From Escherichia phage ALITA, in the sequence record PP359570: a stretch of DNA of 64,000 nucleotides; one strand, given 5' to 3'. Each line of letters begins with the position of its first letter. The first letter of the stretch is position 1. The translations under genes and the position numbers were made by a program. The notes beneath the pieces are model-generated. The model searched no databases. It had not been told where the DNA came from and saw only the letters and a list, made by a program, of their open reading frames with translations. Positions 2,931 through 17,138 of this stretch are shown piece after piece.

Positions 2931-4337
2931 ATGCCAGCACCAAAATCATGGGAACAATATAAAGAAGAATTAACACCCCTTGCTAAAAATCACAACATTC
3001 AGATTCTGGGTTATATTGGTGAATGGAAAGGGAGCAAGACTAAACTTAAGCTATCTTGCTCTGATCATGGGGAGTGGGAAAGTACCATAATCAATAGCTT
3101 TAAAACTAAAGGCGGTAAATGTTGCCCCGATTGCAATGGTCGTAGAAAAGTAACAGAAGAAAAGGAATGTATTTCCCTTGTTGATGTTGCTAAAGAAAGA
3201 GGGTTTACTTTTATAGGTCTTGCCGAAGAGTGGCGAGGTGTGCTAACAAAAATCCGCATAGTTTGCCCTAAACATGGAGAGTGGAACACCACGACCATTA
3301 GTGGTTTTAGGAAGGGACGTGGTTGTCCGGCATGTGCAAGTAATAAGCCGTTAACATGGGAAACAGAATTACCGATCTTGGAAGAGATAGCACAGAAGAA
3401 GGGGTATCAGGTGTTAGGGTACGTGGGAGAATGGAAAGGGATTGATACAAAACTTGATTTGTTGTGTCACTGTGGTAACAGATGGGATACTACAAGTATT
3501 AACAGTTTTAAACATGATCATGGTTGTCCTTTATGTGGGTATGAGAATACAAGGAAGGCACAAACAATACCCGACGATCAACATATTGCAGATTTCTTTT
3601 CTACAGGGAAATTTAAGGAAGGCACTATCTTTACCAATACAGGGAAACGTAGTTGTAGTAAAAACAAGGACATTATCTGGATGATCGAATGTCCTGTTTG
3701 CTCTCATGATGAGTATGTGCAAGCAGGTGTATGTGATGGTAAGTTTTATATGACACGTAGCGATCTTAAGGCTGGACACTTGCCCTGCCGCTGTGCAACT
3801 AACTCTCATTATACAGAAAATCAGATTACCTACAGGGTAAAAAAGGAAGTAGAAGGGAGAGGGTATGTCTGGGTAGGTTGGATCGGTAAACCGTCTATAA
3901 GACTGGGTAATTTTAAATATCTTTGTCTTGTTCATGGGGAACAAATTGGTAGTGCTTATCGCTTACTATATCAGGATAATGGTTGTCCACAATGTGCAGG
4001 TCATAGTCAGCAGCAATTGTATGTTAATGTTGTTAAAGATAATGGTATTATAGTTGCTCTTAAGTTTGGTATATCTAAAGATAGTGCTAGGAGATTAAAC
4101 ATTCAAAATAGGCGTAATATGTTTTTTATGGAGCGTATTTGTTTATATGATTTTAGTACAGTGAAGCAGTGTAAGGCTGCTGAAAGAGCTATAAAGAAAA
4201 AATTAAAAACTGGTATCTTAACAGCAAGAGAGTTGAAAGATGGTTATACAGAAACAGTAAGTGTTTCTGATTTGGAAAATCTTCAAAAAATTATTACACA
4301 ATATGGTGGCAAATTAGTATACAGTAAGGAGGTGTAA
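2931..4337 (+). CDS. multi-Zn-ribbon protein with C-terminal T5orf172/GIY-YIG-like domain (possible homing-type nuclease)
   Basis: 4-5 tandem ~50-aa repeats (xGYxGEWKGxxTKLxLxCxxHGEWxTTxxxF...GCPxC); C-terminus LKFGIS...ERAIKKKL resembles T5orf172. Confidence 0.55.
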   Translation: MPAPKSWEQYKEELTPLAKNHNIQILGYIGEWKGSKTKLKLSCSDHGEWESTIINSFKTKGGKCCPDCNGRRKVTEEKECISLVDVAKERGFTFIGLAEEWRGVLTKIRIVCPKHGEWNTTTISGFRKGRGCPACASNKPLTWETELPILEEIAQKKGYQVLGYVGEWKGIDTKLDLLCHCGNRWDTTSINSFKHDHGCPLCGYENTRKAQTIPDDQHIADFFSTGKFKEGTIFTNTGKRSCSKNKDIIWMIECPVCSHDEYVQAGVCDGKFYMTRSDLKAGHLPCRCATNSHYTENQITYRVKKEVEGRGYVWVGWIGKPSIRLGNFKYLCLVHGEQIGSAYRLLYQDNGCPQCAGHSQQQLYVNVVKDNGIIVALKFGISKDSARRLNIQNRRNMFFMERICLYDFSTVKQCKAAERAIKKKLKTGILTARELKDGYTETVSVSDLENLQKIITQYGGKLVYSKEV

Positions 4338-4889
4338 ATGCGGATTACTGATAAGTATGTGTTCTTCTTCTCGGCAAAAGATGAATTTAGCAACTGGTAT
4401 CTATCATCTTTTATTGAACCTTTAGCTCCCAAGTATAATAATTCTATTACAAGTTCTGTTGAATTTACTTGTGTGGAACAATATATGATGTGGAGAAAAG
4501 CATGTTTGTTTTATGATTACAGTATTGCATCTTCTATTTTAACCGGAGATCTAAGATATACAGGAGAAAAAGAACAAGCATATTATAAACGACTAGGCAG
4601 ATTAGTTAAAGATTATGATGAAGATACCTGGGCTTCTTTACGGGAGAAGATTGTCAAGCGTGGTTTGTATCTTAAATACACACAAAATGAAGATCTCAAA
4701 AATAAACTTATCGCTTACGCAGATAAGGAGTTCGTAGAGGCAAGCCCCTATGATTCTATTTATGGTATCAAAATGGGGATGTGGGATCGGGACGTGGAAA
4801 ATAAGGATTGTTGGAAAGGGCAAAATCTTTTAGGAAAATGGCATACAGACCTTGCTGTTTATCTAAAATCACAATCTGATATTTCCTGA
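4338..4889 (+). CDS. NADAR (YbiA/DUF1768) family protein
   Basis: VFFFSAKDEFSNWY and EFTCVEQYMMWRKA motifs typical of NADAR domain; start abuts previous stop. Confidence 0.75.
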   Translation: MRITDKYVFFFSAKDEFSNWYLSSFIEPLAPKYNNSITSSVEFTCVEQYMMWRKACLFYDYSIASSILTGDLRYTGEKEQAYYKRLGRLVKDYDEDTWASLREKIVKRGLYLKYTQNEDLKNKLIAYADKEFVEASPYDSIYGIKMGMWDRDVENKDCWKGQNLLGKWHTDLAVYLKSQSDIS

Positions 4890-5104
4890 TATTTTGAAAA
4901 TTTTTATTTTTATAAAAAGGGGTGTGGGTTTCATGTACGGAAATCCACCCTCTGAATAATATATCCAGAGTAAGTAGTATTCTGTACTCTGTTAATAAAG
5001 TATTTAATTTGTTTGTTGGATTATGGTGGCTGATCTTTAAAAGGCATACTATCTCTTAACTACTACTTATAACAAAACAGTAAAATCCTTTTTATAAAAG
5101 TACA

Positions 5105-5305
5105 AAATTATTTAAAGTTTTTACAGATTTTCGGGTACAAATTTTGAAAATGAAAAGTTCAAGTTTGGTCAAAATTATTTAAAGTTTTTGTACGTATTTC
5201 TGTCCAGATTTTGAAAATGAAAACTTCAATTTTTTAAAAATTCCCCAGTTTATTTAAAGTTTTTTTGCCTTTTTCCGTAGAAAAATCAAAAATGAAAAGT
5301 TCAAT
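5105..5305. repeat. three imperfect direct repeats (~67-75 bp iterons)
   Basis: Blocks TTATTTAAAGTTTTT (5108, 5175, 5249) and GAAAATGAAAAGTTCAA (5144, 5210, 5287) recur in the same order. Confidence 0.6.
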
Positions 5306-5327
5306 TTCGTGTTTTTATAGGTGTGTT

Positions 5328-5439
5328 AATGAGAATCATTTTCGTTTGTAAATGAGAATCATTATCATTTAACTATGTAAGTGATAATCATTCTCAGTAA
5401 GAGAATGAGAATCATTAGCAAATGAGAATTTTTCTCATT
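5328..5439. promoter_or_regulatory. array of five Fur-box-like operators (AATGAGAATCATT)
   Basis: 13-mers at 5328, 5351, 5380, 5404 and the perfect palindrome AATGAGAA-TTT-TTCTCATT at 5421-5439; the 19-mer ending at 5364 matches GATAATGATAATCATTATC at 16/19. Confidence 0.5.
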
Positions 5440-5674
5440 TACAGAATAACGCGCAGGGGCGGTGTTTGTCTCGCGCTCCCGTGTCCCCTCGCCATACAAT
5501 AAGAATAGCATAACCAATAACAAAAGCAAGCGATTATTTTTATCTTTACATTTCTTTACAAATTTATTTTAGACGAGCTACCGGCGATCAACCTTCCAAC
5601 CAGTGCCCCCTGGTATGTTAGCCCCGCCTTTACGCCGTGGGGTGGCGTTTCCTCTTCTGTATGTAAAACAGTAT

Positions 5675-5693
5675 AAGCCCGATCCCTGGGCTT
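5675..5693 (-). terminator. intrinsic terminator AAGCCC-N7-GGGCTT
   Basis: Hairpin 7 nt after stop of 5701..5967 on minus strand, followed by atactgtttt. Confidence 0.5.
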
Positions 5694-5700
5694 GTCAAGA

Positions 5701-5967
5701 TTATTTTTTGTTTTCTTGCCAGGATAGGACACCTAACCAAAAATACATGTCGCCCCGCGCCCCTGGTGGGATCTTGCTTTCCCCGCCGCCACTGCAAGCC
5801 CATAAATAACCATCAGCGAACGGATCAAAGTGATCTATCTCTTCCACCTTATGATCGCCCAGGTTGAGAACGGTTTCAACCTTTAAGCCCGTTGCGCTTG
5901 CTACCTGGTGCACCGTGCCGCCTTGCCAGCCCAGTGAGTGCATGAGATGTAAAGAAGTATTTGTCAT
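5701..5967 (-). CDS. hypothetical protein (only minus-strand gene of the island)
   Basis: 88-aa ORF with its own promoter/hairpin/purine leader upstream and a terminator downstream. Confidence 0.6.
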   Translation of the reverse strand: MTNTSLHLMHSLGWQGGTVHQVASATGLKVETVLNLGDHKVEEIDHFDPFADGYLWACSGGGESKIPPGARGDMYFWLGVLSWQENKK

Positions 5968-5989
5968 GGTATCGCCCTTTCTTTGTTGT

Positions 5990-6043
5990 GCGCCCTGGTT
6001 GGCGCGGTAGAAAGATGATAGCCGTTTCCTTCATATATAGCAA
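5990..6043 (-). promoter_or_regulatory. promoter + leader hairpin cassette (minus strand) for 5701..5967
   Basis: TTGCTA-N17-TATCAT, then GCGCC-AACCAG-GGCGC hairpin, then acaacaaagaaaggg leader before ATG. Confidence 0.5.
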
Positions 6044-6077
6044 GCAAAAAAGAAATGAAAAAAAGATTAAAAAATGG

Positions 6078-6106
6078 TTGACGTTCCTCACCTGGTAGCG
6101 TAGTAT
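6078..6106 (+). promoter_or_regulatory. sigma70-like promoter TTGACG-N17-TAGTAT
   Basis: Consensus-like hexamers, divergent from the minus-strand promoter at 6015-6043. Confidence 0.45.
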
Positions 6107-6233
6107 TCATCTTGTCGAGGGGGGCAAGACACAACGACAATAAACAATAGGCGGGTGCAATGCAAGACGGGCAAAGGTGAGGATCTCCACAATCCACCGT
6201 CACAATAACATTACTTATAAAAGGTTGATAACG

Positions 6234-6329
6234 ATGATCAAGAAAGAAAATAGCTTGACGGTTGGAACGATTAACGCTATCATTCTTGCCGTTCCATTTT
6301 GGATTGTAGTTGCGGTTATTATTTTCTAA
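6234..6329 (+). CDS. 31-aa hydrophobic peptide (hand-called)
   Basis: ATG..TAA, sequence MIKKENSLTVGTINAIILAVPFWIVVAVIIF; lies between promoters 6078 and 6340. Confidence 0.4.
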   Translation: MIKKENSLTVGTINAIILAVPFWIVVAVIIF

Positions 6330-6339
6330 AAAAATATTC

Positions 6340-6397
6340 TTGACAACGTTTTTTAATCTGATAAGATGTATCACATAGGGCGGCAATAGTGCCGCTC
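6340..6397 (+). promoter_or_regulatory. promoter/hairpin cassette C1 (serves 6420)
   Basis: TTGACA-N16-TAAGAT (TGn extended), cacATAG, hairpin GGCGGCA-ATAG-TGCCGC, leader cataacagaagagagaaataatc. Confidence 0.7.
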
Positions 6398-6419
6398 ATA
6401 ACAGAAGAGAGAAATAATC

Positions 6420-6692
6420 ATGGCATCATATAGCGCATCAATGATTGTAAAGGGTATCACTGGTAAACCTATGCGCGGTGGCGGATCTTTCGCTAACATC
6501 AATATTGATGGACGTTTATCCCTGGACGCAGCGATCACAGTGGCACGGGAAACATTTAAAAAAGAATGTAATTTCAATAAACAAGATTATCTCGGTTTTG
6601 CTATTGAAAAAACCGCGCGCTTTGTGGATTATAAAAGCCCGAAAATGATCGACACTACACTAAAAGCGCAAGATGTAGCGTTTTTGCTTTAA
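6420..6692 (+). CDS. hypothetical protein
   Basis: 90-aa ORF directly behind cassette C1. Confidence 0.7.
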   Translation: MASYSASMIVKGITGKPMRGGGSFANINIDGRLSLDAAITVARETFKKECNFNKQDYLGFAIEKTARFVDYKSPKMIDTTLKAQDVAFLL

Positions 6693-6705
6693 GACTTGAC
6701 ACTGA

Positions 6706-6756
6706 AAAATAATTTGATAATATATACCACATAAGGCGGGGAAATGGTTTCCCGCC
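6706..6756 (+). promoter_or_regulatory. promoter/hairpin cassette C2 (serves 6779)
   Basis: TTGACA-N16-TAATAT, hairpin GGCGGGGAAA-TGG-TTTCCCGCC, leader aaatcaaagaaaggg. Confidence 0.7.
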
Positions 6757-6778
6757 AAATCAAAGAAAGGGTAATGCA

Positions 6779-7141
6779 ATGAGCAAGCAAATCAATACTA
6801 TCATGTTTAATCTGGTATCTTTCCGCGATGACGTGAAAAACCTTTCGCGTGATGCAGTGGATGCACGGATCGAAAGCTATCGCACACAGATCGCAACGTT
6901 ACCGCTGAAACGTGATCAACATGCCGCTAATATGATGCTTGATGCTATGATTAAAAAGATGATTCAATGTGATCTTACCCTGGCTTATGAATATGCTGGC
7001 GATCTCTTTGTAACATATAGCAAGCCCGTTCCAGGTATGAGCACCACGGAAGAATTGCATGCCTTAAATCTGCGACAAGATGCATGGGATAACATGCGCC
7101 GTGTTATGGTATGGGTAGAAAGCGGTAAAATTTACGAATAA
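6779..7141 (+). CDS. hypothetical protein
   Basis: 120-aa ORF behind cassette C2. Confidence 0.7.
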   Translation: MSKQINTIMFNLVSFRDDVKNLSRDAVDARIESYRTQIATLPLKRDQHAANMMLDAMIKKMIQCDLTLAYEYAGDLFVTYSKPVPGMSTTEELHALNLRQDAWDNMRRVMVWVESGKIYE

Positions 7142-7147
7142 AAACGG

Positions 7148-7200
7148 TTGACATTGCACTAAAACCTGATAAGCTATCTTAAAGCGGGAATAGTTCCCGC
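7148..7200 (+). promoter_or_regulatory. promoter/hairpin cassette C3 (serves 7220)
   Basis: TTGACA-N16-TAAGCT, hairpin GCGGGAA-TAG-TTCCCGC. Confidence 0.65.
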
Positions 7201-7219
7201 TTACATAGGATAAAACTTT

Positions 7220-7366
7220 ATGAAACAATATGTAATGAGTATTCACACCAAAAACGGCGCTACTGTTACGACTCCGGCACGGTTTGCACTTGTAAACCGT
7301 TGCAAGAGACTAAAACGAGAGCTAAAAAACAACCGTGCAACGGGCTTTAAACGCTGGGGAGGATAA
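7220..7366 (+). CDS. 48-aa basic protein (hand-called)
   Basis: ATG 20 nt after hairpin C3; ends GGAGGATAA, which supplies the RBS for the next gene. Confidence 0.5.
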   Translation: MKQYVMSIHTKNGATVTTPARFALVNRCKRLKRELKNNRATGFKRWGG

Positions 7367-7368
7367 TC

Positions 7369-7629
7369 TTGTTTTTTCTAAAAGTTTTTGATAATGTGAT
7401 CGCTTTTGAACATGCTACAACGTTCGACCTGGCGAGATACGCTATCAGGTTTAAAGATAATGTTTATCCCCGTGCTGGCGGCGGTTACACTATTTTTAAT
7501 CATCGCAACGCGCAACTAACTGATATAACTAATCCAGATCCTGGAGTGTATCGGATAGGCTGGCTACCGTCAAAAGATGCGGCAAGCATGTTTAAGGTAT
7601 GTAAACTACTAACAGAAGAGGCGAACTAA
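7369..7629 (+). CDS. hypothetical protein (TTG start)
   Basis: 86-aa ORF, GGAGG 6 nt upstream of TTG. Confidence 0.55.
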   Translation: MFFLKVFDNVIAFEHATTFDLARYAIRFKDNVYPRAGGGYTIFNHRNAQLTDITNPDPGVYRIGWLPSKDAASMFKVCKLLTEEAN

Positions 7630-7630
7630 C

Positions 7631-8185
7631 ATGGGGCGTGAATATGTGATCCAGTCCTGGGTAAAGCATGATGCTAATGATCCGCGCATAATACCAGATG
7701 ACATGATCGATCACATGGTAGGGTATAGCGGGGAGCAGATAGGAAATCGAGCGGCAAAGAGCAACGGCAACACCAGGACGCGATCCGTTCGCCCTGGATG
7801 GCTGGCAAATGGTAACGCTGACATTGCAAGCGCCGCAGATCCAAGCGATGACGCTAAAAATAATCCCTTATACAGTATTGATCCGGCTTTTAAGGTGTTG
7901 GAAGAGTATCCCGCTAAATTAGCCGCACTAGATAAAGCATACGAAGAAAAACGGGTGGCATGGACTGTATACAACACCGCTAAAATGGTGCTAGATGCAA
8001 AATTGATTAAAGCCCAGGAGAAGATCAATAAACTTGTTACCATAGCGCAAGAGGAAGACCAGGACGACCAGGAGGAAGAGGAAGAAATCATGCCTAACCT
8101 GGAAGAGGAAGAGATCCAGCCATACACGCCGACAGAAGAGGAAAAAATACAAGCCTTAAAAAATTATAAAAATTGTATTGTGTAA
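7631..8185 (+). CDS. hypothetical protein with strongly acidic C-terminus
   Basis: 184-aa ORF, 1 nt after previous stop; tail QEEDQDDQEEEEEIMPNLEEEE. Confidence 0.65.
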   Translation: MGREYVIQSWVKHDANDPRIIPDDMIDHMVGYSGEQIGNRAAKSNGNTRTRSVRPGWLANGNADIASAADPSDDAKNNPLYSIDPAFKVLEEYPAKLAALDKAYEEKRVAWTVYNTAKMVLDAKLIKAQEKINKLVTIAQEEDQDDQEEEEEIMPNLEEEEIQPYTPTEEEKIQALKNYKNCIV

Positions 8186-8188
8186 GGC

Positions 8189-8245
8189 TTGACATATGCA
8201 AACAAGCCCCGTAATATGTACCACATAGAGCGGGGCAACCCCCTC
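8189..8245 (+). promoter_or_regulatory. orphan promoter/hairpin cassette C4 (no ORF behind it)
   Basis: TTGACA-N17-TAATAT, cacATAG, GAGCGGGG-CAA-CCCCCTC hairpin, aaaggtgaaataaaaatc leader runs straight into the next promoter. Confidence 0.55.
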
Positions 8246-8265
8246 AAAGGTGAAATAAAAATCAC

Positions 8266-8293
8266 TTGACAACTGAAATCAGTAAGCTATAAT
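8266..8293 (+). promoter_or_regulatory. sigma70-like promoter TTGACA-N16-TATAAT (serves 8331)
   Basis: Perfect consensus hexamers; no GC hairpin in this leader. Confidence 0.6.
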
Positions 8294-8330
8294 GCTTATA
8301 TAAATTAAAGCGTTACTAAGGAATAAAATC

Positions 8331-8696
8331 ATGGCTAAAAATATCAATGTTTCTGCTTATGCTACCCTGGCTAACACTGCTAAAATTGAACTATCCAGCA
8401 TTGAAGCGGTACATATTAGCGCCCGTCGCTGGTTTCAAAAGTCTTATGGTAATACTTATTTCTCTTTGATGGTTGACGTTGAGATCGGCGGTAAACTGAT
8501 TGAAGTCGTTAACGTTCCGTTTCAATATGGTTATGGTGATCATTTTGATACCGTTGCCCTAGAAGAGTTTAGCAAGGTTATCAACCTGGAAGGTAAAGAC
8601 TTTTCAAATTATGCTTACCTTTCCCGTTTTTGCCGTGATAATGGGATCGCTGTATACAGTCATGCAAGCGATGTTAAACGTAAAAAAGATTTATAA
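8331..8696 (+). CDS. hypothetical protein
   Basis: 121-aa ORF, AAGGA RBS. Confidence 0.7.
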   Translation: MAKNINVSAYATLANTAKIELSSIEAVHISARRWFQKSYGNTYFSLMVDVEIGGKLIEVVNVPFQYGYGDHFDTVALEEFSKVINLEGKDFSNYAYLSRFCRDNGIAVYSHASDVKRKKDL

Positions 8697-8702
8697 AAAG
8701 TA

Positions 8703-8766
8703 TTGACAGCACGAATAAAAAGCGTAAAATGTTTTATATCAGGACGGGGGAACGGTTTCCCCTCCT
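8703..8766 (+). promoter_or_regulatory. promoter/hairpin cassette C5 (serves 8786)
   Basis: TTGACA-N16-TAAAAT, hairpin AGGACGGGGGAA-CGG-TTTCCCCTCCT, leader taacaaagagagaaataaaa. Confidence 0.65.
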
Positions 8767-8785
8767 AACAAAGAGAGAAATAAAA

Positions 8786-8968
8786 ATGGCTAAATGCACT
8801 ATCTGTAAGAAAGAAATAGTATTAGTTCCAAGCGCCCGTGAACGTGCCGCTAAGTTTGGTGGCAAACCGTCAGACTATACAAAAATGTTCACTACCCATG
8901 CAGCTTGCCAGGTAGCGAAACGTTCACAAGAAAGCGTAGAATTAATGCGTAAACTTTCCAAAAAATAA
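8786..8968 (+). CDS. hypothetical Cys-containing small protein
   Basis: Start moved to MAKCTICKK because the longer ORF (8729) would read through the promoter and hairpin. Confidence 0.6.
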   Translation: MAKCTICKKEIVLVPSARERAAKFGGKPSDYTKMFTTHAACQVAKRSQESVELMRKLSKK

Positions 8969-8970
8969 TA

Positions 8971-9029
8971 TTGACAAAGTATTTTATTACTATATAATGG
9001 TTTACATCGAGAGCGGGAATAGTTCCCGC
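8971..9029 (+). promoter_or_regulatory. promoter/hairpin cassette C6 (serves 9054)
   Basis: TTGACA-N16-TATAAT, hairpin GCGGGAA-TAG-TTCCCGC. Confidence 0.7.
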
Positions 9030-9053
9030 CTCACTGAAAAAGAGATTAACATC

Positions 9054-9293
9054 ATGGCTAAATCTAAAATGTACAACGGTCACAAAAACAAAACTCATTG
9101 GAATGTAAGCCTTTGGATCAACAACGATGAAGGTTTTTATAATCTTGCGCGTGAATTTATCGCAGCTAACACCAATAAGAATGACGCAGCGCGGGATATG
9201 ATGTTATTTCTTGAAAGTATGGATCAAGATAAAACGCCAGACGGTTACAAGTTCAGTAAAACTGCAATCCGTGCCGCTATGGTTGGAATGTAA
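9054..9293 (+). CDS. hypothetical protein (HWNVSLWINNDE motif)
   Basis: Start at MAKSKMY downstream of the hairpin; 79 aa. Confidence 0.65.
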   Translation: MAKSKMYNGHKNKTHWNVSLWINNDEGFYNLAREFIAANTNKNDAARDMMLFLESMDQDKTPDGYKFSKTAIRAAMVGM

Positions 9294-9306
9294 AGGAGAC
9301 ATAAAA

Positions 9307-9387
9307 ATGAAACATCGTTCGACCTATCTGACAAAACGTTTTAGCTTAGATCATAAATTAGGCTATTACGGAAGAAATAGAAAATAA
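9307..9387 (+). CDS. 26-aa basic peptide (hand-called, weak)
   Basis: GGAGA RBS then ATG; fills the 9294-9388 gap. Confidence 0.3.
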   Translation: MKHRSTYLTKRFSLDHKLGYYGRNRK

Positions 9388-9388
9388 T

Positions 9389-9448
9389 TTGACAACGTTT
9401 AAAATTAGTGTAAGATGTATCACATAGGGCGGGAAATGGTTTCCCGCC
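9389..9448 (+). promoter_or_regulatory. promoter/hairpin cassette C7 (serves 9471)
   Basis: TTGACA-N16-TAAGAT, cacATAG, GGCGGGAAA-TGG-TTTCCCGCC, leader aaatcaaagaaagg. Confidence 0.7.
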
Positions 9449-9470
9449 AAATCAAAGAAAGGTTATCATT

Positions 9471-9698
9471 ATGGCTATCGTTATTGTTCGCGTATCCGGT
9501 ACGGTTGGGATCTCCCAGGTAGTAGCAGTTATCACCGAGAAGAAAGGAGATGATCTTCACTCCTCCTTGAATAGCTGGGCGGTCGCTAACTTTGGGCAAT
9601 GGTCGAGCGTTGAGTACATCGAATCCTACCAGGTGCCAACGATTAGCCTAACCGATCTAAATGTTGATCGCTTGTTGTGCCTGGATCAATTAAACTAA
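9471..9698 (+). CDS. hypothetical protein
   Basis: 75-aa ORF behind cassette C7. Confidence 0.65.
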   Translation: MAIVIVRVSGTVGISQVVAVITEKKGDDLHSSLNSWAVANFGQWSSVEYIESYQVPTISLTDLNVDRLLCLDQLN

Positions 9699-9706
9699 AA
9701 ATAATA

Positions 9707-9764
9707 TTGACAAGATAACTAAAATCAGTAAAATGTAATGCATAGGGCGGCAATAGTGCCGCTC
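9707..9764 (+). promoter_or_regulatory. promoter/hairpin cassette C8 (serves 9786)
   Basis: TTGACA-N16-TAAAAT, gcATAG, GGCGGCA-ATAG-TGCCGC. Confidence 0.7.
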
Positions 9765-9785
9765 CTAGTGAGAGAGATTATCAAG

Positions 9786-10001
9786 ATGGCTAATATCCGC
9801 ACACTGTTAAAAAATGCAAGTCAAGTTTTATTTTCAGATGACGAGTATTTCAACAAAGACATTACAGGCGTGAAAAATTTAAAAGACGTGAAGGATGTTA
9901 TCGGTATCCGTGGATCTTTACGTAAAGGTGACATATACGGTAACAAGGTGCAATATAAACTGTCAAAAGATTATGATTTTACTTTGACATTTATTTCATA
10001 A
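9786..10001 (+). CDS. hypothetical protein
   Basis: Start at MANIRTLL after the hairpin; 71 aa. Confidence 0.6.
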   Translation: MANIRTLLKNASQVLFSDDEYFNKDITGVKNLKDVKDVIGIRGSLRKGDIYGNKVQYKLSKDYDFTLTFIS

Positions 10002-10007
10002 AACCGC

Positions 10008-10068
10008 TTGCAATACTGCAAAAATAAAGTAAACTGTATTCATCAAGGCGGTGGAATAGCCCACCGCC
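10008..10068 (+). promoter_or_regulatory. promoter/hairpin cassette C9 (serves 10092)
   Basis: TTGCAA-N16-TAAACT, hairpin GGCGGTGG-AATAGC-CCACCGCC, leader taacaaagagaagagg. Confidence 0.6.
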
Positions 10069-10091
10069 TAACAAAGAGAAGAGGAAACATC

Positions 10092-10262
10092 ATGATCACT
10101 TTCGCTACCCGTGAAGCCGCTCGCAACGTTGCACGTAAAGTTAACGCCGCCAACCTGGGCGCTACGCTTAAAGCCCCGGTAAAAGATGAATCAGGTAAAT
10201 GGATCTTCCCTGGTCTGCGTCACGCTGATAAGCTGGGAACGTTAACGCTAAAAAATAAATAA
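10092..10262 (+). CDS. hypothetical protein (56 aa)
   Basis: Start at MITFATRE after the hairpin. Confidence 0.55.
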   Translation: MITFATREAARNVARKVNAANLGATLKAPVKDESGKWIFPGLRHADKLGTLTLKNK

Positions 10263-10269
10263 AATCCGC

Positions 10270-10328
10270 TTGACAGTAGCATCATTTATAAGTAAAGTAA
10301 CAACAACGGCGGGAAATGGTTTCCCGCC
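10270..10328 (+). promoter_or_regulatory. promoter/hairpin cassette C10 (serves 10349)
   Basis: TTGACA-N17-TAAAGT, GGCGGGAAA-TGG-TTTCCCGCC, leader atcaataaagagataagatc. Confidence 0.7.
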
Positions 10329-10348
10329 ATCAATAAAGAGATAAGATC

Positions 10349-10708
10349 ATGAAATCAGTAAAAGCAATTAAAACTTACATTGTGTCGGCTATTTCTTTTG
10401 ATGGTACTACAACCGAAAAAGAAAAGATCACCGAACTGATGCGCCGTTTTAACTCTGAATACTGGTATCCCGATAATCAAAAACGTTACAATTATAACGT
10501 GATCAAGGCAATAGCCTCATGGTTACAAGGTTTACCGTCAGAAATCAATATTGCTTTTGATTATAACGAGATCGATCACTTGTTAATTGAATGGAAGTAC
10601 ATAAAAGAAACAAGCAAAGAAACAACCGTTACCCGTGAGCGGGAAAATTATTGGTTATATATTGCAAGCATGATCGTAATCCTGGCAAAACAGCATAACG
10701 CGGCGTAA
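10349..10708 (+). CDS. hypothetical protein
   Basis: 119-aa ORF behind cassette C10. Confidence 0.7.
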   Translation: MKSVKAIKTYIVSAISFDGTTTEKEKITELMRRFNSEYWYPDNQKRYNYNVIKAIASWLQGLPSEINIAFDYNEIDHLLIEWKYIKETSKETTVTRERENYWLYIASMIVILAKQHNAA

Positions 10709-10723
10709 TTAAGAGGAAAAAAC

Positions 10724-10861
10724 ATGAACGCATCACAGCAGATCGAAAAATTCAACCGCAGCAAGGCGCGTAAAGATTGGAACGAAGAGATCACCAAAAA
10801 AGGCGACAAGCGGAACAAAACAAAAAGAGATCGCAGCACAAAAAGATACTGGAACGAATAA
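10724..10861 (+). CDS. 45-aa lysine/arginine-rich protein (hand-called)
   Basis: AAGAGGA RBS, ATG; ends 6 nt before the terminator. Confidence 0.45.
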   Translation: MNASQQIEKFNRSKARKDWNEEITKKGDKRNKTKRDRSTKRYWNE

Positions 10862-10867
10862 CAAAAA

Positions 10868-10888
10868 GGGCGCAATAAGCGCCCTTTT
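10868..10888 (+). terminator. intrinsic terminator GGGCGC-AATAA-GCGCCC + TTTT
   Basis: Perfect stem plus T-run; same design as 14803 and 15959. Confidence 0.65.
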
Positions 10889-10978
10889 AGCTTATATAGA
10901 GGCTTGTTACCCATAGGCAATGGTAACGCCAGGGCAAGCCTATAAATCAACGTTAGACGGCTTTACAGGAGCTTTAAA

Positions 10979-11161
10979 ATGAGATTAGAAGAAATAAGCA
11001 AGGCACTAGCCCAGGGGCAAAGGTTAAACGCCCGTTATCGTGATCAATATGGCTTCATAACTAGCGGCGTGATCCTGGGGATTGAAGGCAATAAGATTTT
11101 TATTGACACGTTGAAAAACGTTGTATATAGTGACAATATAATCTCAATAAAACATATATGA
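10979..11161 (+). CDS. hypothetical protein
   Basis: 60-aa ORF with AGGAG RBS. Confidence 0.55.
   Translation: MRLEEISKALAQGQRLNARYRDQYGFITSGVILGIEGNKIFIDTLKNVVYSDNIISIKHI
11103..11131 (+). promoter_or_regulatory. sigma70-like promoter TTGACA-N17-TATAGT (inside 3' end of previous gene)
   Basis: Consensus-like hexamers ~40 nt upstream of 11170. Confidence 0.45.
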
Positions 11162-11169
11162 GGCAAGAA

Positions 11170-11571
11170 ATGAAAAAATTATTGATCGCTGGTTTAATCT
11201 CTTTTGGCATGGTTGGAACATCTAGCGCGGCGATATCCTCCACAGTAGCAGAATTAAGCGCCGTTGATGCAATGGAAAACGTCATGCTTATTAATAATGC
11301 GATCCCCGATGAAATCATGGAGGATTCACACATGATCGCTTATGGTGCTGTTACACAACTAACGGCAAAAATAGATAAATCTATTGTTAATGGCTTAAAT
11401 GAAGATGTACCATGTGAAATTATTACCAGTGTGCTCACTACTCAAAATTTTACGCCGTGGTTAAAAAGTATTCAAAAAGTACACAGTACAGCCGCAGATC
11501 GTAGCAATGAAAAACTAGTGTCAGCACTTGCAACGTATACCCTAGCAAAATGCACTGAAATAAAAGATTGA
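11170..11571 (+). CDS. secreted protein (signal peptide)
   Basis: MKKLLIAGLISFGMVGTSSA-A signal-peptide-like N-terminus; start chosen at MKKLL. Confidence 0.65.
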   Translation: MKKLLIAGLISFGMVGTSSAAISSTVAELSAVDAMENVMLINNAIPDEIMEDSHMIAYGAVTQLTAKIDKSIVNGLNEDVPCEIITSVLTTQNFTPWLKSIQKVHSTAADRSNEKLVSALATYTLAKCTEIKD

Positions 11572-11596
11572 CAGCATAGAAAGCACGTTATAAGAT
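11568..11596 (+). promoter_or_regulatory. sigma70-like promoter TTGACA-N17-TAAGAT (serves 11619)
   Basis: Consensus hexamers, no hairpin; leader acacacaacaaaggag. Confidence 0.55.
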
Positions 11597-11618
11597 ACAC
11601 ACAACAAAGGAGAACTAC

Positions 11619-11921
11619 ATGAACGGCATAGCTAAAACGTTTTTTCTTTTTTCTGGTGTAAATGATCCATCAATAAAAGTCGATAGTGTAAAAGAAAACA
11701 ATACTATCACCGCTAAATTGTTTCAAGATGAAACAAATAACGTGCTAATCATTAATCTTAAAGAAATAACTAAAGGTTATTATACTATTGCTTACCATGC
11801 GATCTATCATGCTGGTACTAGCGAGGAAGTGCAAACAAGCAACAACGAAAGCGCGGCGCTACCTGGTGATCTGGTGCTGGGTGTTATTAGTTTAATTGTC
11901 AATGATTTTTTTAAGGAGTAA
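11619..11921 (+). CDS. hypothetical protein
   Basis: 100-aa ORF with AAGGAG RBS. Confidence 0.6.
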   Translation: MNGIAKTFFLFSGVNDPSIKVDSVKENNTITAKLFQDETNNVLIINLKEITKGYYTIAYHAIYHAGTSEEVQTSNNESAALPGDLVLGVISLIVNDFFKE

Positions 11922-11925
11922 AACC

Positions 11926-12021
11926 ATGCCCTATTTACATTTATTTTTCGGGATCTTATTGTCAGGATCTTTTTTCTTCTGTATGCTTGTTTCTATTGTA
12001 AACCACGTTTTAAGACATTAA
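11926..12021 (+). CDS. 31-aa hydrophobic peptide (hand-called)
   Basis: AAGGAG RBS in the end of the previous gene; MPYLHLFFGILLSGSFFFCMLVSIV. Confidence 0.4.
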   Translation: MPYLHLFFGILLSGSFFFCMLVSIVNHVLRH

Positions 12022-12030
12022 GGAAACAGC

Positions 12031-12150
12031 ATGAAAATTATTCCCGTACAATATAGCGTAATAAATCCAGCATATGAGGAAGGAAGGAAAACAAGCATGG
12101 CTTTATGTTGTATTGTTACTATAGCCATGTTGTTATATATTGTGTTTTAA
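12031..12150 (+). CDS. 39-aa peptide with C-terminal TM segment (hand-called)
   Basis: AAGGAAACAGC then ATG; ...MALCCIVTIAMLLYIVF. Confidence 0.4.
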   Translation: MKIIPVQYSVINPAYEEGRKTSMALCCIVTIAMLLYIVF

Positions 12151-12179
12151 TAGGTTTTATAGTTGTACGCTTTAAAGGC

Positions 12180-12231
12180 TTGACAATTTTTTGTTATGCT
12201 TTAAAATATATCTTGAAAACGGCAAAGGCCG
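12180..12231 (+). promoter_or_regulatory. promoter TTGACA-N16-TAAAAT + short CGGC-AAAG-GCCG hairpin (serves 12251)
   Basis: Consensus hexamers; degenerate version of the cassette hairpin. Confidence 0.5.
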
Positions 12232-12250
12232 CAAACAAAAGGGTAAAATT

Positions 12251-12574
12251 ATGAAATCTGTGATCGGTGTTTATTTGGATAACTCTGATTTTTTCTATCA
12301 TCGCGCGCGTTTACTTGATGCTATTGAAATGATAGAATCAGGCTTTAAAGAGTATCGCCTTGCACATGATGACCTGGAAGCATTACAGGGCAATAGTGTT
12401 TTTACATTGCAAGCGAAAGCACTATGCAAAAGCCGGATCGAGATTGCAAGTAAAAAGATAGAGCGCGGCATGTCCTGGTTACGCACCGCAGAAATCAACA
12501 TGGGGCAATGGTACGGCAAAAACTTAGAAAATAAACATGCTTTTGTAAATGTAGAAAATATTGAAGATTATTGA
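12251..12574 (+). CDS. hypothetical protein
   Basis: Start at MKSVIGVY downstream of the promoter; 107 aa. Confidence 0.6.
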   Translation: MKSVIGVYLDNSDFFYHRARLLDAIEMIESGFKEYRLAHDDLEALQGNSVFTLQAKALCKSRIEIASKKIERGMSWLRTAEINMGQWYGKNLENKHAFVNVENIEDY

Positions 12575-12636
12575 TTGACAGCACACCTGATAAGGAGTAT
12601 ATTGTATCTCATAGAGCGGGGAAATGGTTTCCCCGC
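12575..12636 (+). promoter_or_regulatory. promoter/hairpin cassette C15 (serves 12657)
   Basis: TTGACA-N17-TATATT, tcATAG, GCGGGGAAA-TGG-TTTCCCCGC, leader ttaacagaagagataagat. Confidence 0.7.
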
Positions 12637-12656
12637 CTTAACAGAAGAGATAAGAT

Positions 12657-12941
12657 ATGAAGATCACAAAAGCACTTTCCAACTATGCAGCACGTCGCGG
12701 ATTATGCTTATCCGTTGAAAACTTAGGGAAAGAAGATTTTTTGTGCTTTTGGGAGCTTGAGAATGATAATGAGTGGATCTTCTCTTATTCTATCTGCAAA
12801 GATCAAAATGGTTGCTTGTTAACCTGGCGCGGTAATATCTATCTACCGGAAGAAATCAAAGAAGAATTACCAGGCACGATCATGACTGAGAAACAGCTTA
12901 AGGAAGTGATTAATTTTGTAGGGCAAAACATTAAAAAATAA
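12657..12941 (+). CDS. hypothetical protein
   Basis: 94-aa ORF behind cassette C15. Confidence 0.7.
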   Translation: MKITKALSNYAARRGLCLSVENLGKEDFLCFWELENDNEWIFSYSICKDQNGCLLTWRGNIYLPEEIKEELPGTIMTEKQLKEVINFVGQNIKK

Positions 12942-12942
12942 T

Positions 12943-13001
12943 TTGACACTAGGCAAACAACGTAGTAAAGTTTATCACATAGGGCGGCAATAGTGCCGCT
13001 C
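12943..13001 (+). promoter_or_regulatory. promoter/hairpin cassette C16 (serves 13024)
   Basis: TTGACA-N17-TAAAGT; 54 nt from tatcacatag to ATG (12973-13026) are identical to 6369-6422. Confidence 0.7.
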
Positions 13002-13023
13002 ATAACAGAAGAGAGAAATAATC

Positions 13024-13194
13024 ATGATCCCAACTATGTTTTATGTATCGCGCAAAGGTCACAATATTTTTTGGTCTGAAGATTTAAATGAAGCCATGAC
13101 GTTTGCCCGTGATCGTGTTGCTATCGGTGGCGTTAATATTACCGTAACCGATGAAAACGGCATTGAATACTACAACGGCGACGATGAAGAGTAA
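13024..13194 (+). CDS. 56-aa hypothetical protein (hand-called)
   Basis: ATG at the end of the duplicated leader; MIPTMFYVSRKGHNIFW... Confidence 0.55.
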   Translation: MIPTMFYVSRKGHNIFWSEDLNEAMTFARDRVAIGGVNITVTDENGIEYYNGDDEE

Positions 13195-13201
13195 TTAATA
13201 A

Positions 13202-13223
13202 GGCGGGGGGAGTATTCCCCGCC
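13202..13223 (+). promoter_or_regulatory. leader hairpin without promoter (C17, serves 13243)
   Basis: GGCGGGG-GGAGTATT-CCCCGCC then atcaataaagagataaatc ATG; no TTGACA upstream. Confidence 0.5.
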
Positions 13224-13242
13224 ATCAATAAAGAGATAAATC

Positions 13243-13512
13243 ATGAAAATATCATTGGACGTTGCAATCAAGGCCATCGAATCCGGTTACACCCTGGTAA
13301 AAGATGATAAGGCTAAAACCGTGCACCACGTTAACAAGGAAACAGGCGAAAGCATGATCACATATAAAGCCGCCTACTTTCTCCAATCAGTAGCAGATCC
13401 GCGCGTACAACGCCAGGTTACGGCGGCTATTGCTAAAAAATTATGTGCTTTACAGGGTACAAGTTTTAACGAGATCGCCCCGTGTTTTGACTGGTCGAGC
13501 TTGAAAAAATAG
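13243..13512 (+). CDS. hypothetical protein
   Basis: 89-aa ORF behind hairpin C17. Confidence 0.7.
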   Translation: MKISLDVAIKAIESGYTLVKDDKAKTVHHVNKETGESMITYKAAYFLQSVADPRVQRQVTAAIAKKLCALQGTSFNEIAPCFDWSSLKK

Positions 13513-13513
13513 T

Positions 13514-13575
13514 TTGACAATACGCGGTTATCTGGTAAAGTGTACGACATAGGGCGGGGCAATAAGGCAACGCCC
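13514..13575 (+). promoter_or_regulatory. promoter/hairpin cassette C18 (serves 13594)
   Basis: TTGACA-N16-TAAAGT, acATAG, GGGCG...CGCCC stem with large loop. Confidence 0.6.
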
Positions 13576-13593
13576 ATTAATGAGGGTAGAATC

Positions 13594-13698
13594 ATGTTAG
13601 AGAAAATTTTCACGGTTGTAGTAGTGGGCCTGGCGTTATCGGTTGGAGTGGTTGCAACTATGGCTAACATGATCCTATCTTCCCACGGTATTGGATAA
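13594..13698 (+). CDS. 34-aa membrane peptide (hand-called)
   Basis: GAGGG RBS; MLEKIFTVVVVGLALSVGVVATMANMIL. Confidence 0.45.
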   Translation: MLEKIFTVVVVGLALSVGVVATMANMILSSHGIG

Positions 13699-13708
13699 GG
13701 TGAATCAA

Positions 13709-13924
13709 ATGATCACGAATAAGACAGGTAAAACGGAATTCTTGCGCGGCTTGCAAATAGGTAAACCTGAGATCTGGCATTGCACTAAATCCGCGCATAA
13801 TGAAATGAAAGATTTTACCGCTACTTTACAACGTGTTAAAATATCTATCACGCAGAAAAAAGCCTTGTTAGTAGTAGAAAACGAGATACCGCAAACCATT
13901 ATTATTGTCGAGCGTACAGCATGA
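13709..13924 (+). CDS. hypothetical protein
   Basis: ORF track starts at TTG 13691; ATG 13709 has better TAAGGTG spacing. Confidence 0.55.
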   Translation: MITNKTGKTEFLRGLQIGKPEIWHCTKSAHNEMKDFTATLQRVKISITQKKALLVVENEIPQTIIIVERTA

Positions 13925-14307
13925 AAACTGAAATCATTATTGAAATCATCAACGGTTATAAAGAAGCCTTTATTTTTGCTGAATCAGCCAGGGATCATGA
14001 AGGTAATTTTATAGATGACATGACTGATCATGAGTTTTCAGATCAAGCCCATCAGCGGATCATACATGACGTGGCGGCGTTTTGTGATGCCAATGATGCC
14101 GCTATCTCTGAGGCAATGAGCGACGGCGCTACAGCAAACCAGATCGGGAATGACTTACATTTCACCCGTAATGGTCACGGCGTAGGCTTTTGGGATCGCC
14201 CTGAAATATACACTACTAACACCGCCAACCGACTAACAAATGCAGCTAAATTAATGCCATCGGTGCATGCTTACATTGGTGAAGATAATTTGATTTATAT
14301 TGAATAA
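13921..14307 (+). CDS. hypothetical protein (RNGHGVGFWD motif)
   Basis: 128-aa ORF, ATGA overlap with the previous gene. Confidence 0.7.
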   Translation: MKTEIIIEIINGYKEAFIFAESARDHEGNFIDDMTDHEFSDQAHQRIIHDVAAFCDANDAAISEAMSDGATANQIGNDLHFTRNGHGVGFWDRPEIYTTNTANRLTNAAKLMPSVHAYIGEDNLIYIE

Positions 14308-14313
14308 AAAGTA

Positions 14314-14372
14314 TTGACACCGATCCCCAATATGGTATGATTTACCACGTAGGCGGGAAATGGTTTCCCGCC
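14314..14372 (+). promoter_or_regulatory. promoter/hairpin cassette C19 (serves 14396)
   Basis: TTGACA-N16-TATGAT (TGn extended), cacGTAG, GGCGGGAAA-TGG-TTTCCCGCC. Confidence 0.7.
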
Positions 14373-14395
14373 AGGTAATCAAAAAGGTAAATACT

Positions 14396-14785
14396 ATGCG
14401 CAACCTGGTTTCTGTTTCTAACGTTGAAAAATTCCAATCTTTACAGGGTATCGTTAACAACGTAGCGCCTTTTTTAGTCAATGGCTTGATTGCAAAGATG
14501 AAAAATAAACATCATGCGGCATGGTCTGCTTACTGCTTTGATAATGATGAAAAAGCGGCTGAAATGATGTTAGATATGCTGTTAGATAGTGTAGAAACAT
14601 CTTTACCGGAAAACATCGCAGAAGAGATCACCTATCGTTATAATATGGCGATCACTTACCAGGAGGTTGCGCAATTTAATATGATGGATGATGACGAACA
14701 ACAGGATCAGGAAATGTTCTGGGAGTATGCAGATCGTCAATCGGCTTTTGATGAAAAGTTAGCGATGTATTATAACGAATATTAA
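14396..14785 (+). CDS. hypothetical acidic protein
   Basis: Start at MRNLVSV after the hairpin; 129 aa. Confidence 0.6.
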   Translation: MRNLVSVSNVEKFQSLQGIVNNVAPFLVNGLIAKMKNKHHAAWSAYCFDNDEKAAEMMLDMLLDSVETSLPENIAEEITYRYNMAITYQEVAQFNMMDDDEQQDQEMFWEYADRQSAFDEKLAMYYNEY

Positions 14786-14802
14786 TACACGGTAAAAGAA
14801 AG

Positions 14803-14826
14803 GGGCGCACTAAGCGCCCTTTTTTG
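14803..14826 (+). terminator. intrinsic terminator GGGCGC-ACTAA-GCGCCC + T6
   Basis: Perfect stem plus tttttt. Confidence 0.7.
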
Positions 14827-15170
14827 TATTCTTTTTTCACGATGGAAACAACACGTAAAGAATAGGCGTAAAGGTGGCGTAAAACAGCCTAAAACCGATT
14901 ATAACCGCTTAAACAAGGTAATAATGACTAATCACCTTGCCAGGATGAAAAAGCTGTTATAAAGCTATTTAGAGCGTTTAAAGCACATAGGAAATAATTT
15001 GCTTTTTATCTTGCCTTTTATCCTGCTTTTGATTATTATTATGGAACGGGCGGCACCTGGGGACAGGGGAAGATAATCACCGGAAGATCCCGCTATATAT
15101 TAATAGCTAATACCTATCAAACAACAAAACATCAAAGGAATAAACTATCAAATCTTTACAATCCTACCTA

Positions 15171-15231
15171 TTGACACAGGATCACCCTTATACTAATATG
15201 TATCCCGTAGGGCGGGAAATGGTTTCCCGCT
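15171..15231 (+). promoter_or_regulatory. promoter/hairpin cassette C20 (serves 15250)
   Basis: TTGACA-N17-TAATAT, ccGTAG, GGCGGGAAA-TGG-TTTCCCGC. Confidence 0.7.
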
Positions 15232-15249
15232 TGATATAGGAATCATACC

Positions 15250-15483
15250 ATGATCGAACAAATTAAAAGCACTACACCAAATGTTAACGGCAATGTTTCA
15301 CACTTTATCGGTGATAATGAAAGGGGCACACCATACGCCGCCGTAACCGTGCAACCTAATGGCGATTATTGGTTTACCGTGTACGGATCATACTCTTTCG
15401 GACGCCCGGCACATGATAAGATCTTGCAAGCGGTTAAACCTGCGGGGAAGAATATCACAGCAGAAAAATTTTATAAAAAATAG
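15250..15483 (+). CDS. hypothetical protein
   Basis: 77-aa ORF behind cassette C20. Confidence 0.7.
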   Translation: MIEQIKSTTPNVNGNVSHFIGDNERGTPYAAVTVQPNGDYWFTVYGSYSFGRPAHDKILQAVKPAGKNITAEKFYKK

Positions 15484-15484
15484 C

Positions 15485-15513
15485 TTGCTTTATTTCTTCT
15501 GTTAACTTATAGT
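15485..15513 (+). promoter_or_regulatory. promoter TTGCTT-N17-TATAGT with degenerate cassette remnant (gcGTAGGGC, no stem)
   Basis: Hexamers plus a conserved GTAGGGC word, but the palindrome is lost. Confidence 0.45.
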
Positions 15514-15558
15514 TATCGCGTAGGGCAAACAATTTTAAACGGTAAACGAGGAATCACC

Positions 15559-15942
15559 ATGAGCAATATCATCAACCTGGCAGCGACTGTAAACGGTAAA
15601 GACTTTAACGGCGCTGTAGACCGTGATCCTATGTGGTGCTTATCAGTGTTTAAAGGCGATCTGGTTGAAGTTAGAACAACCGAAGGTTATAGCGACGATT
15701 ATAAATGCGAGATTCATTTACACAACTGGTACACGGGTAAAACTTATGCGCTGAATCACGCGTTTATCGGGAAAATTGAATATCGCGAGATGATCGACGA
15801 AGAAACGGGGCAAGATTTTAGCGAGCATGTTTATATTCGTTCAGAAACATTAGCCGAACGTTTGATCGAGAAAATGAAAGCAAAAAATAAAATTAATTTA
15901 TCTCATTGGATTGATATAACAAACGATCCGGCTTATAAGTAA
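15559..15942 (+). CDS. hypothetical protein
   Basis: 127-aa ORF with GAGGA RBS. Confidence 0.7.
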   Translation: MSNIINLAATVNGKDFNGAVDRDPMWCLSVFKGDLVEVRTTEGYSDDYKCEIHLHNWYTGKTYALNHAFIGKIEYREMIDEETGQDFSEHVYIRSETLAERLIEKMKAKNKINLSHWIDITNDPAYK

Positions 15943-16189: not shown

Positions 16190-16260
16190 AATGATAATCA
16201 TTCTTATTTATAGCTGATTATTTATGCAATTTATTGCATAATGCAATAATGATAATCATT
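16190..16260. promoter_or_regulatory. two exact Fur-core 13-mers AATGATAATCATT flanking a triple ATGCAAT/ATTGCAT palindrome
   Basis: 13-mers at 16190-16202 and 16248-16260; ATGCAAT-TT-ATTGCAT-A-ATGCAAT at 16224-16247. Confidence 0.5.
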
Positions 16261-16640
16261 CCTAACTTAAGACCATCTAACCTATAAAATAATAAGTTAT
16301 CTAACTAAATTAAAACTAATTATCTCACTTTTATTTATAACTTACTGTTACTATCTCATTGATAACCTTATATTAAACAACAATAACTAATATAAATCAT
16401 TACTAAGCTAAATATAATCTATCTAACCCTTAAAACTACAATTATAATCTATCTAATTGTTGCACAAAGTAACTATTAAATTGTTAGTAACATTACTAAA
16501 TAATTCACATCCTATCTATTTATGATCTAATCTTTACCTTTCTATCTATTACCTAAATAACCATTTCATACAGTAATTATTCCATATGGTAATCATTTCA
16601 TACAATAATTATAACAAGAAATATAATTCGCAAGCGTATC

Positions 16641-16816: not shown

Positions 16817-17119
16817 TAATGTTTAGAACATTGGCTATAATATAAGCTGCATATAATAAACTATGCAATAATAAACATGGTGAATAATGACACCGATGAT
16901 CATAATGCGCCACCCTCCAGGGGGCGCTATGTAAACACAAAGAAATCTTTCTTGTCAAGAAAATATTGCCACTATTGCGCAAAATTATTTTTATCTGAAT
17001 AGATGATTTTTCATACTATTGCCCCTATAACATACCTCATTTGTTGAGCCTACTTTCTTAAAAGCGCAATAAATCAGAATTATCTTGATTTTTAGGGCGT
17101 TTTATAGTACAGAAAGTAT

Positions 17120-17138
17120 GCAAATGATAATCATTATC
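17120..17138. promoter_or_regulatory. Fur-box-like site (17/19 to GATAATGATAATCATTATC)
   Basis: gcaAATGATAATCATTATC read directly from the sequence. Confidence 0.5.

Follow-up and report, generated by a model that had tools for sequence, protein, structure and literature searches.

The stretch of DNA analysed here, called the window throughout, comprises 64,000 nucleotides of Escherichia phage ALITA (sequence record PP359570), and the element under study is an array of three bipartite direct repeats at positions 5097-5307. About 50 Escherichia phages match the window with 95-97% identity over 3 kb; they belong to the genus Justusliebigvirus, the phi92-like phages of the subfamily Stephanstirmvirinae. 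Around the repeats, identity to phage PD114 is 99.5% across 401 bp. The repeats lie inside a gene-poor segment of about 1.5 kb (4890-6340), which is kept in annotated relatives and is bounded on the left by the end of a NADAR-domain gene (stop codon at the end of 4338-4889, plus strand) and on the right by the first of many small rightward genes. The only annotated open reading frame (ORF) in this segment is a minus-strand ORF of 88 amino acids (5701-5967), a homologue of phi92 gp224. Three GenBank records mark the repeats as 'repeat_region' without interpretation, and the literature covered, which did not extend to the phi92 genome paper, describes neither these repeats nor an origin or transcript maps for the subfamily.

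A repeat search recovers one family with three 77-nt copies (5089-5165, 5156-5232, and 5231-5307), which are 71% identical and start 67 and 75 bp apart. The units of the array begin at about 5097, 5164, and 5239, no strand is assigned to them, and each is built from two conserved blocks. Box A, TTATTTAAAGTTTTT, is exact in all three units (5108-5122, 5175-5189, and 5250-5264), with a spacing of 67/75 bp. Box B, GAAAATGAAAAGTTCAA, is exact in the first unit (5146-5162) and has one mismatch in the second (GAAAATGAAAACTTCAA, 5213-5229) and in the third (AAAAATGAAAAGTTCAA, 5288-5304); the offset from box A to box B is 38 bp in all three units. The original prediction, made from the letters alone, had described two blocks alternating three times with periods of about 67 and 75 bp in an ORF-free, AT-rich segment. 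The repeats are real, their conserved boxes and recurring architecture being far beyond chance, and both periods are as measured; no ORF of at least 40 amino acids overlaps 5060-5364, and the AT content at the repeats is 75-78%. The positions given for box A hold at 5108 and 5175, the third being 5250 rather than 5249, and those given for box B (5144, 5210, and 5287) are off by a trivial 1-3 nt. No further copy of either box occurs at 0-1 mismatches in the 64-kb window, nor do the boxes recur in the complete genome of a congener (148,442 bp).

Conservation in relatives, which had been proposed as a check, spoke for the repeats: the boxes are invariant or nearly so within the genus, and the units are present in four further lineages. 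Variability was counted over eight distinct congeneric sequences, in which none of the 45 box A positions and one of the 69 box B positions varies (together 1/114), compared with 11 of the 134 positions outside the boxes, which include the spacers, the inter-unit segments, and the left flank (Fisher p=0.007). The boxes are under purifying selection. The four lineages that carry the same three units are Citrobacter phage Tr1, Klebsiella phage phi1_175008, the phAPEC8-type phages, and the phiWec181-type phages. Box-A spacing in further lineages of the subfamily is 67/76, 67/75, and 66/72 bp, with a total of 139 bp in phiWec181, and unit spacing is retained over four or five genera (67/75, 68/75, 67/76, 67/75, and 66/72). 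The spacer sequence is free to vary between genera, while the box A part TATTTAAA, identical in every genus compared, and the box B core AAAA.cAAAAttTAAAgTTT stay. In 13 units from five lineages, the information per column is 1.39 bits for box A, 1.11 for box B, and 0.66 for the spacer. Units within one genome are 67% alike, compared with 62% for units of the same rank across genera, as would be expected if all three fit one binding partner. By these comparisons, the repeats are conserved, spacing-constrained non-coding sites that behave like protein-binding sites. To that extent the term iteron-like, used in the original prediction, is apt as a description, while none of the three functions named with it (replication origin, partition site, or packaging signal) gains support, as discussed below.

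Two further observations were made on the repeats of relatives. In the phAPEC8 type (2454-2500 of the sequence examined) and in the phiWec181 type, the middle unit is degenerate (TTATCTTAAAATG, with box B shifted), yet the outer units keep 138-139 bp between them. A scan of IMG/VR with the GC-rich element to the right of the palindromes as anchor returned mostly unrelated contigs, of which three were usable.

The three units are DNA-level non-coding sites. Several other readings of the repeats themselves were tried and set aside. For a structured RNA, Rfam gave no family at threshold, and a permissive setting gave only sub-threshold microRNA-type matches on the palindromes, taken as chance; a leftward transcript across the repeats folds no better than shuffles (z = -1.1), and neither does the conserved element to the right of the repeats (z = +0.55). 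Mini-ORFs starting from an ATG in box B were rejected, the ATG being missing in other genera. As to promoters, no sigma-70-type site lies within the repeats, and TTTAAAGTTT, box A, and box B do not form a recurring promoter motif, the box motif being found at no other promoter of the window. Intrinsic curvature was dropped as well, with A-tract phasing inconsistent between genera and a mononucleotide shuffle as the only control.

Adjoining the repeats on the right, in agreement with the earlier statement that they lie directly upstream of an operator array, are five Fur-box-like palindromes (5324-5443, no strand; 15-mers at 5330, 5353, 5382, 5406, and 5423; consensus AAATGAGAATCATTCTCATTT), which depart from the Fur 7-1-7 motif TGAnAATnATTnTCA by at most one mismatch. 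The sequence GATAATGAGAATCATTATT is part of the aerobactin operator. Fur represses transcription and occupies clustered sites, which are described as a 19-bp Fur box or by a 7-1-7 model (PMC2189734). Comparable palindrome arrays occur in T5-like, Vequintavirinae, and Vibrio phages, in more than 200 phage records (217 matched the query from Klebsiella phage KaOmega). The array resembles the Fur operator clusters of enterobacterial iron-uptake promoters in motif and clustering, a likeness that concerns the palindromes and not the three repeats; unlike those operators, it overlaps no recognisable promoter and belongs to a virulent phage. No E. coli sequence match was found for 5300-6420, and no plasmid match for 5060-5460.

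The same architecture recurs in sister lineages. Exactly three direct repeats stand before a palindrome array in Klebsiella phage KaOmega (Certrevirus, spacing 78/63), in E. coli phage 4MG (Seunavirus, 76/67), and in Vibrio phage 1.121.O, a myovirus (56/63), with three to four palindromes per array; the repeats of these phages are unrelated in sequence to boxes A and B. Their base composition is not shared either: AT content is 75-82% in the repeats of Stephanstirmvirinae, whereas their Certrevirus equivalents have 54%, and what is conserved is thus probably not the ease of melting. Five lineages (Stephanstirmvirinae, two Vequintavirinae genera, a Vibrio myovirus, and T5-like phages) have in common the order of terminal small-gene block, Fur-like array, lineage-specific direct repeats, and rest of the genome. 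With palindromes common to these phages and repeats that differ by lineage, the simplest assumption would be a host factor for the former and a phage factor for the latter.

The position of the array on the physical genome can be read from relatives. By homology to the annotated RTR of phi92, a direct terminal repeat of 343 bp lies at 17047-17389 (no strand), so that the two physical ends of the genome meet inside the window; short direct terminal repeats have been reported for the subfamily. The terminal repeat of phage BME3, derived with PhageTerm, maps to 17120-17461 of the window, and BME3 carries 53 bp that the window lacks, inserted shortly upstream of the terminal repeat at about 17034-17036. 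The distance from the repeats to a physical genome end is therefore 11.7-12.3 kb, and 11.9 kb, or 8.0% of the 148.6 kb of phi92, separate the Fur-like array from the right end. Between the array and this end lies a block of small rightward ORFs headed by promoters (6340-15940), whose make-up looks typical of early, host-takeover genes. Seven or more promoter units are distributed along 6340-15232, each consisting of TTGACA-N17-TAnnAT (with a TAAGAT-like -10) followed by a GGGCGGGAAATGGTTTCCCGCC-type or GTATCACATAGGGCGGGAAATGGTTTCCCGCC hairpin. The first promoter-plus-hairpin unit, found from repeat families and a promoter scan, heads the block at 6340-6367 (plus strand), and the 'promoters' annotated with PHIRE in phAPEC8 are the 5' hairpins of these early promoter units. 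The array thus stands at the inner border of a small-gene block carrying strong sigma-70-type promoters, about 12 kb (8%) from the physical end. Next to the terminal repeat, 16260-16620 is very AT-rich and non-coding (GC about 0.30) and contains many short repeats, including ATCTATCTAA-type motifs; three copies of TAAyCATTTCATACArTAATTAT, spaced by 16 bp, are found at 16558-16612.

Fur-like boxes are found at the other end of this block too. Across the genome of phage alia there are 10 Fur-motif matches where 1.6 are expected, and 9 of the 10 are in two clusters, one adjoining the repeats and the other at the far end of the early-type block, with two boxes within the terminal repeat. In the window, the two outer boxes occupy 16190-16264 (at 16190 and 16248), and motif matches inside the terminal repeat are at 17123-17139 and 17318-17336, none with a strand. 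Flanking of the small-gene block on both ends by Fur-like boxes is seen in four phages: alia, KaOmega (960-1032 and 13700-14289), Vibrio phage 1.121.O (15400 and 25305/25363), and BF23 (Fur-type boxes at 232 and 9099-9235), the coordinates of KaOmega and the Vibrio phage being those of the sequences examined. The bracketed blocks of small same-strand genes measure 12 kb in KaOmega and 8.4 kb in the Vibrio phage.

To the right of the palindromes follows a GC-rich conserved element (CAGAATAACGCGCAGGGGCGGTGTTTGTCTCGCGC..., 5444-5505, no strand) and then a near-consensus sigma-70-type promoter on the minus strand (5670-5698; TTGACA-17-TATACT, 11/12), which is aimed at the palindromes and the repeats and, judging from the sequence, appears to be conserved in KaOmega. 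On the far side of the repeats, a local fold gave a hairpin (4919-4950, minus strand) that the consensus scan did not call; a T-run accompanies it on the minus-strand side alone (4898-4918). This hairpin is a probable terminator for leftward transcripts crossing the repeats, and the one-sided T-run suggests that such non-coding transcripts do cross them. The roughly 200 nt of non-coding sequence that follow the promoter (5450-5700, minus strand) are near-identical between phi92-like and phAPEC8 phages and are recognisably conserved in Vequintavirinae (CTTTACAnTTCTTTACAAA; CTACCGGCGATC...GTTAGCCCCGCCTTTnCGCCGTGGGGTGGCG), with no thermodynamic signal of structure; this stretch is possibly a non-coding RNA or a DNA site. 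More broadly, 5440-6130, from the palindromes through gp224, is much more similar to phAPEC8 than are the three repeats or the flanking genes, which suggests either a recent cassette exchange with its breakpoint at the palindrome array or a very strong constraint.

The genes that flank the repeats encode a generic AAA ATPase (2.3 kb away), a CapR/T5orf172 endonuclease, the NADAR protein, and the gp224 homologue. The ORF at 2931-4337 has four CapR-homology repeats and a weak match to T5orf172, of the homing-endonuclease type. It is annotated as 1173, 1191, or 1398 nt depending on the relative, and this varying length fits a mobile or decaying element.

How can these features be put together? 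The explanation that we favour, tentatively, over a replication origin and a purely transcriptional operator is that the locus is a composite boundary or gating element of the terminal early segment, with a phage protein on the repeats and host Fur on the palindromes. Each bipartite unit would be bound by a protein specific to the phage lineage, which would be why the repeat sequence varies with the lineage. The palindromes would be bound by a host factor, presumably Fur, and this would be why they are alike across phages that have no early proteins in common. Together, repeats and palindromes would build a nucleoprotein complex of fixed geometry, acting as the cis-acting boundary of the terminal early segment and corresponding in function to the 'injection stop' region of T5, a large untranslated stretch. 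Its most likely action would be to hold or gate something that moves along the DNA at this border; what is gated could be DNA entry, paused as in T5, and/or RNA polymerase that leaves the early region in the leftward direction.

The closest competitor is a transcription-activated replication origin of the iteron type, which we consider possible but rather unlikely. A phage initiator would bind the three units, and the leftward promoter (5698-5670) would drive a non-coding transcript over the Fur boxes into the repeats, thereby opening or priming the DNA. Such an arrangement would resemble T4 oriE, with its early promoter, small Rep proteins, and iterons. The repeats are unique, conserved, and non-coding, their sequence is lineage-specific, and they are AT-rich in this subfamily; the near-consensus promoter is aimed at them, the hairpin with its minus-side T-run lies beyond them, and the small conserved ORF gp224 is on the same leftward unit. 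In addition, no origin has been located to date for this phage group in the literature. However, no DnaA (TTWTNCACA) or IHF (WATCAANNNNTTR) sites are found in 4890-6200, totals in the window being at chance level, and no recognisable initiator gene adjoins the repeats, gp224 matching no assigned fold. The 54% AT of the equivalent Certrevirus repeats again speaks against easy melting as a conserved property, and there is no likeness to any plasmid replicon. Iteron-type origins such as lambda ori, P1 oriR, and those of iteron plasmids usually have direct repeats of about 17-22 bp in a regular tandem array. The phi92-like locus shares with them lineage-specific direct repeats, a non-coding AT-rich stretch, and probable inward transcription, but its units are about 70 bp long, bipartite, unequally spaced at fixed distances, and exactly three in every lineage. 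Furthermore, T5-like phages share the palindrome array, and their origins are reported near the genome centre (Davison, bioRxiv 10.1101/866236).

Cumulative GC skew over the full genome, suggested earlier as a check for an origin, proved uninformative. In the complete genome, transcription direction alone accounts for the variance in GC skew with an R2 of 0.700, and adding a switch at the repeats gives 0.701, with no change of skew polarity there. Extremes of the cumulative skew coincide with switches in gene orientation, and the GC/AT skew of the window likewise tracks transcription. It is important to note that this test has little power in such phages; the authors of the rV5 study likewise concluded that skew follows transcription.

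A little less probable, and in our view doubtful, is a purely transcriptional control region, in which a phage regulator would use the repeats as its operators and Fur would act as an iron-responsive roadblock, the two controlling a leftward non-coding transcript or insulating the early block from the operon upstream of it, with no role in DNA entry or replication. The nature of Fur as a clustering transcriptional repressor, the leftward promoters and downstream hairpin that flank the element, and the Fur-like boxes at both ends of the early-type block in four lineages are consistent with such a region. On the other hand, the repeats are 360-600 bp downstream of the strongest leftward promoter, with no gene after them, and they neither contain a sigma-70-type promoter nor share their box motif with any other promoter in the window. 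A terminator alone would do for insulation, and a fixed three-unit geometry across subfamilies exceeds the needs of a simple operator.

Packaging and partition roles, both named in the original prediction, are essentially excluded: three unequally spaced sites do recall R1-R3 of lambda cosB, as for a pac/cosB-like site with three binding sites for the terminase small subunit, and two unrelated GenBank records (Klebsiella phage phi1_175008 and OR786310, ETEC-TG) start just upstream of the repeats, but a packaging site is contradicted by physical ends and a terminal repeat 11.7 kb away and by the lack of a terminase among the seven flanking ORFs scanned, and a partition centromere is unsupported in a virulent phage with terminal repeats, whose repeat region has no plasmid homology and in which a scan of four genes upstream, gp224, and two genes further downstream gave no ParA/ParB-type gene. 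The starts of these two records, 87-170 bp upstream of the repeat array, are probably an artefact of assembly or convention.

Whichever process it serves, one composite non-coding architecture recurs among large virulent phages that infect enterobacteria and vibrios, in five lineages or more. Phi92-like and rV5-like phages find wide use as candidates for therapy, and phage engineers should leave this short, unique, and conserved cis-element intact.

The boundary reading draws much of its content from the comparison with T5. In T5, DNA entry pauses at the 7.9% point, and Repeat Region 3, with its DRE and DRD repeats, is the candidate injection stop signal, in a paper that leaves Fur unmentioned (Davison, bioRxiv 10.1101/866236). 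The palindrome array of the window gives blastn matches to T5-like phages at 75-80% identity. In BF23, the palindromes are at 9156-9237 of the 9743-bp left terminal repeat, in the non-coding stretch that separates the first-step-transfer (FST) operons from the early genes, and a perfect Fur-type box is located 232 bp from the genome end. The corresponding region of EC100 has, in order, two DnaA boxes, five palindromes, a hairpin, and eight TGTGCAAATCCGACA repeats, and equals T5 Repeat Region 3.

Several points weigh against too close a parallel and leave it incomplete. The T5 region has paired DnaA boxes (IRD'/IRC'), which are not found at the phi92-like repeats, and it lies in or at the end of a terminal repeat of 8.5-10 kb, compared with 343 bp here. 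Twelve FST proteins of BF23, including the transfer proteins A1 and A2 as well as dmp, gave no tblastn match at E<=0.01 in the alia genome and the window, a result that fits a host factor for the shared palindromes. The direct repeats differ as well, T5 having 8-9 short DRD repeats and phi92-like phages three bipartite units of about 70 bp, unrelated in sequence.

The points of likeness are nevertheless numerous. In both T5-like and phi92-like phages, 1 kb or more of non-coding DNA adjoins a terminal small-gene block on its inner side, about 8% from the end, and the small genes of this block are driven by host promoters in both. The DRE palindromes of T5 (AATGAGAATCATT-type) are of the same type as the phi92-like array, lineage-specific direct repeats follow on the interior side of the palindromes (DRD in T5, the three units here), and an extra Fur-like box occurs near the physical end in both groups. 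T5 transfers its DNA in two steps, and the likeness of the phi92-like phages to it is one of sequence and gene layout. By analogy, phi92-like and rV5-like myoviruses and their Vibrio relative might also deliver or activate their genomes in two stages, an idea that we put forward as speculative and on balance improbable. The stop or gate would then consist of three lineage-specific bipartite repeats, read by a phage protein that is possibly virion-borne, plus an array of host Fur sites, and the other Fur sites, those near the genome end, would close off on its outer side the segment of about 8% that enters first. The cis-signal of the T5 injection stop has been unsettled for decades, and a candidate host factor can now be offered: if the two-stage scheme is true, Fur would be the missing host factor of this long-unexplained signal.
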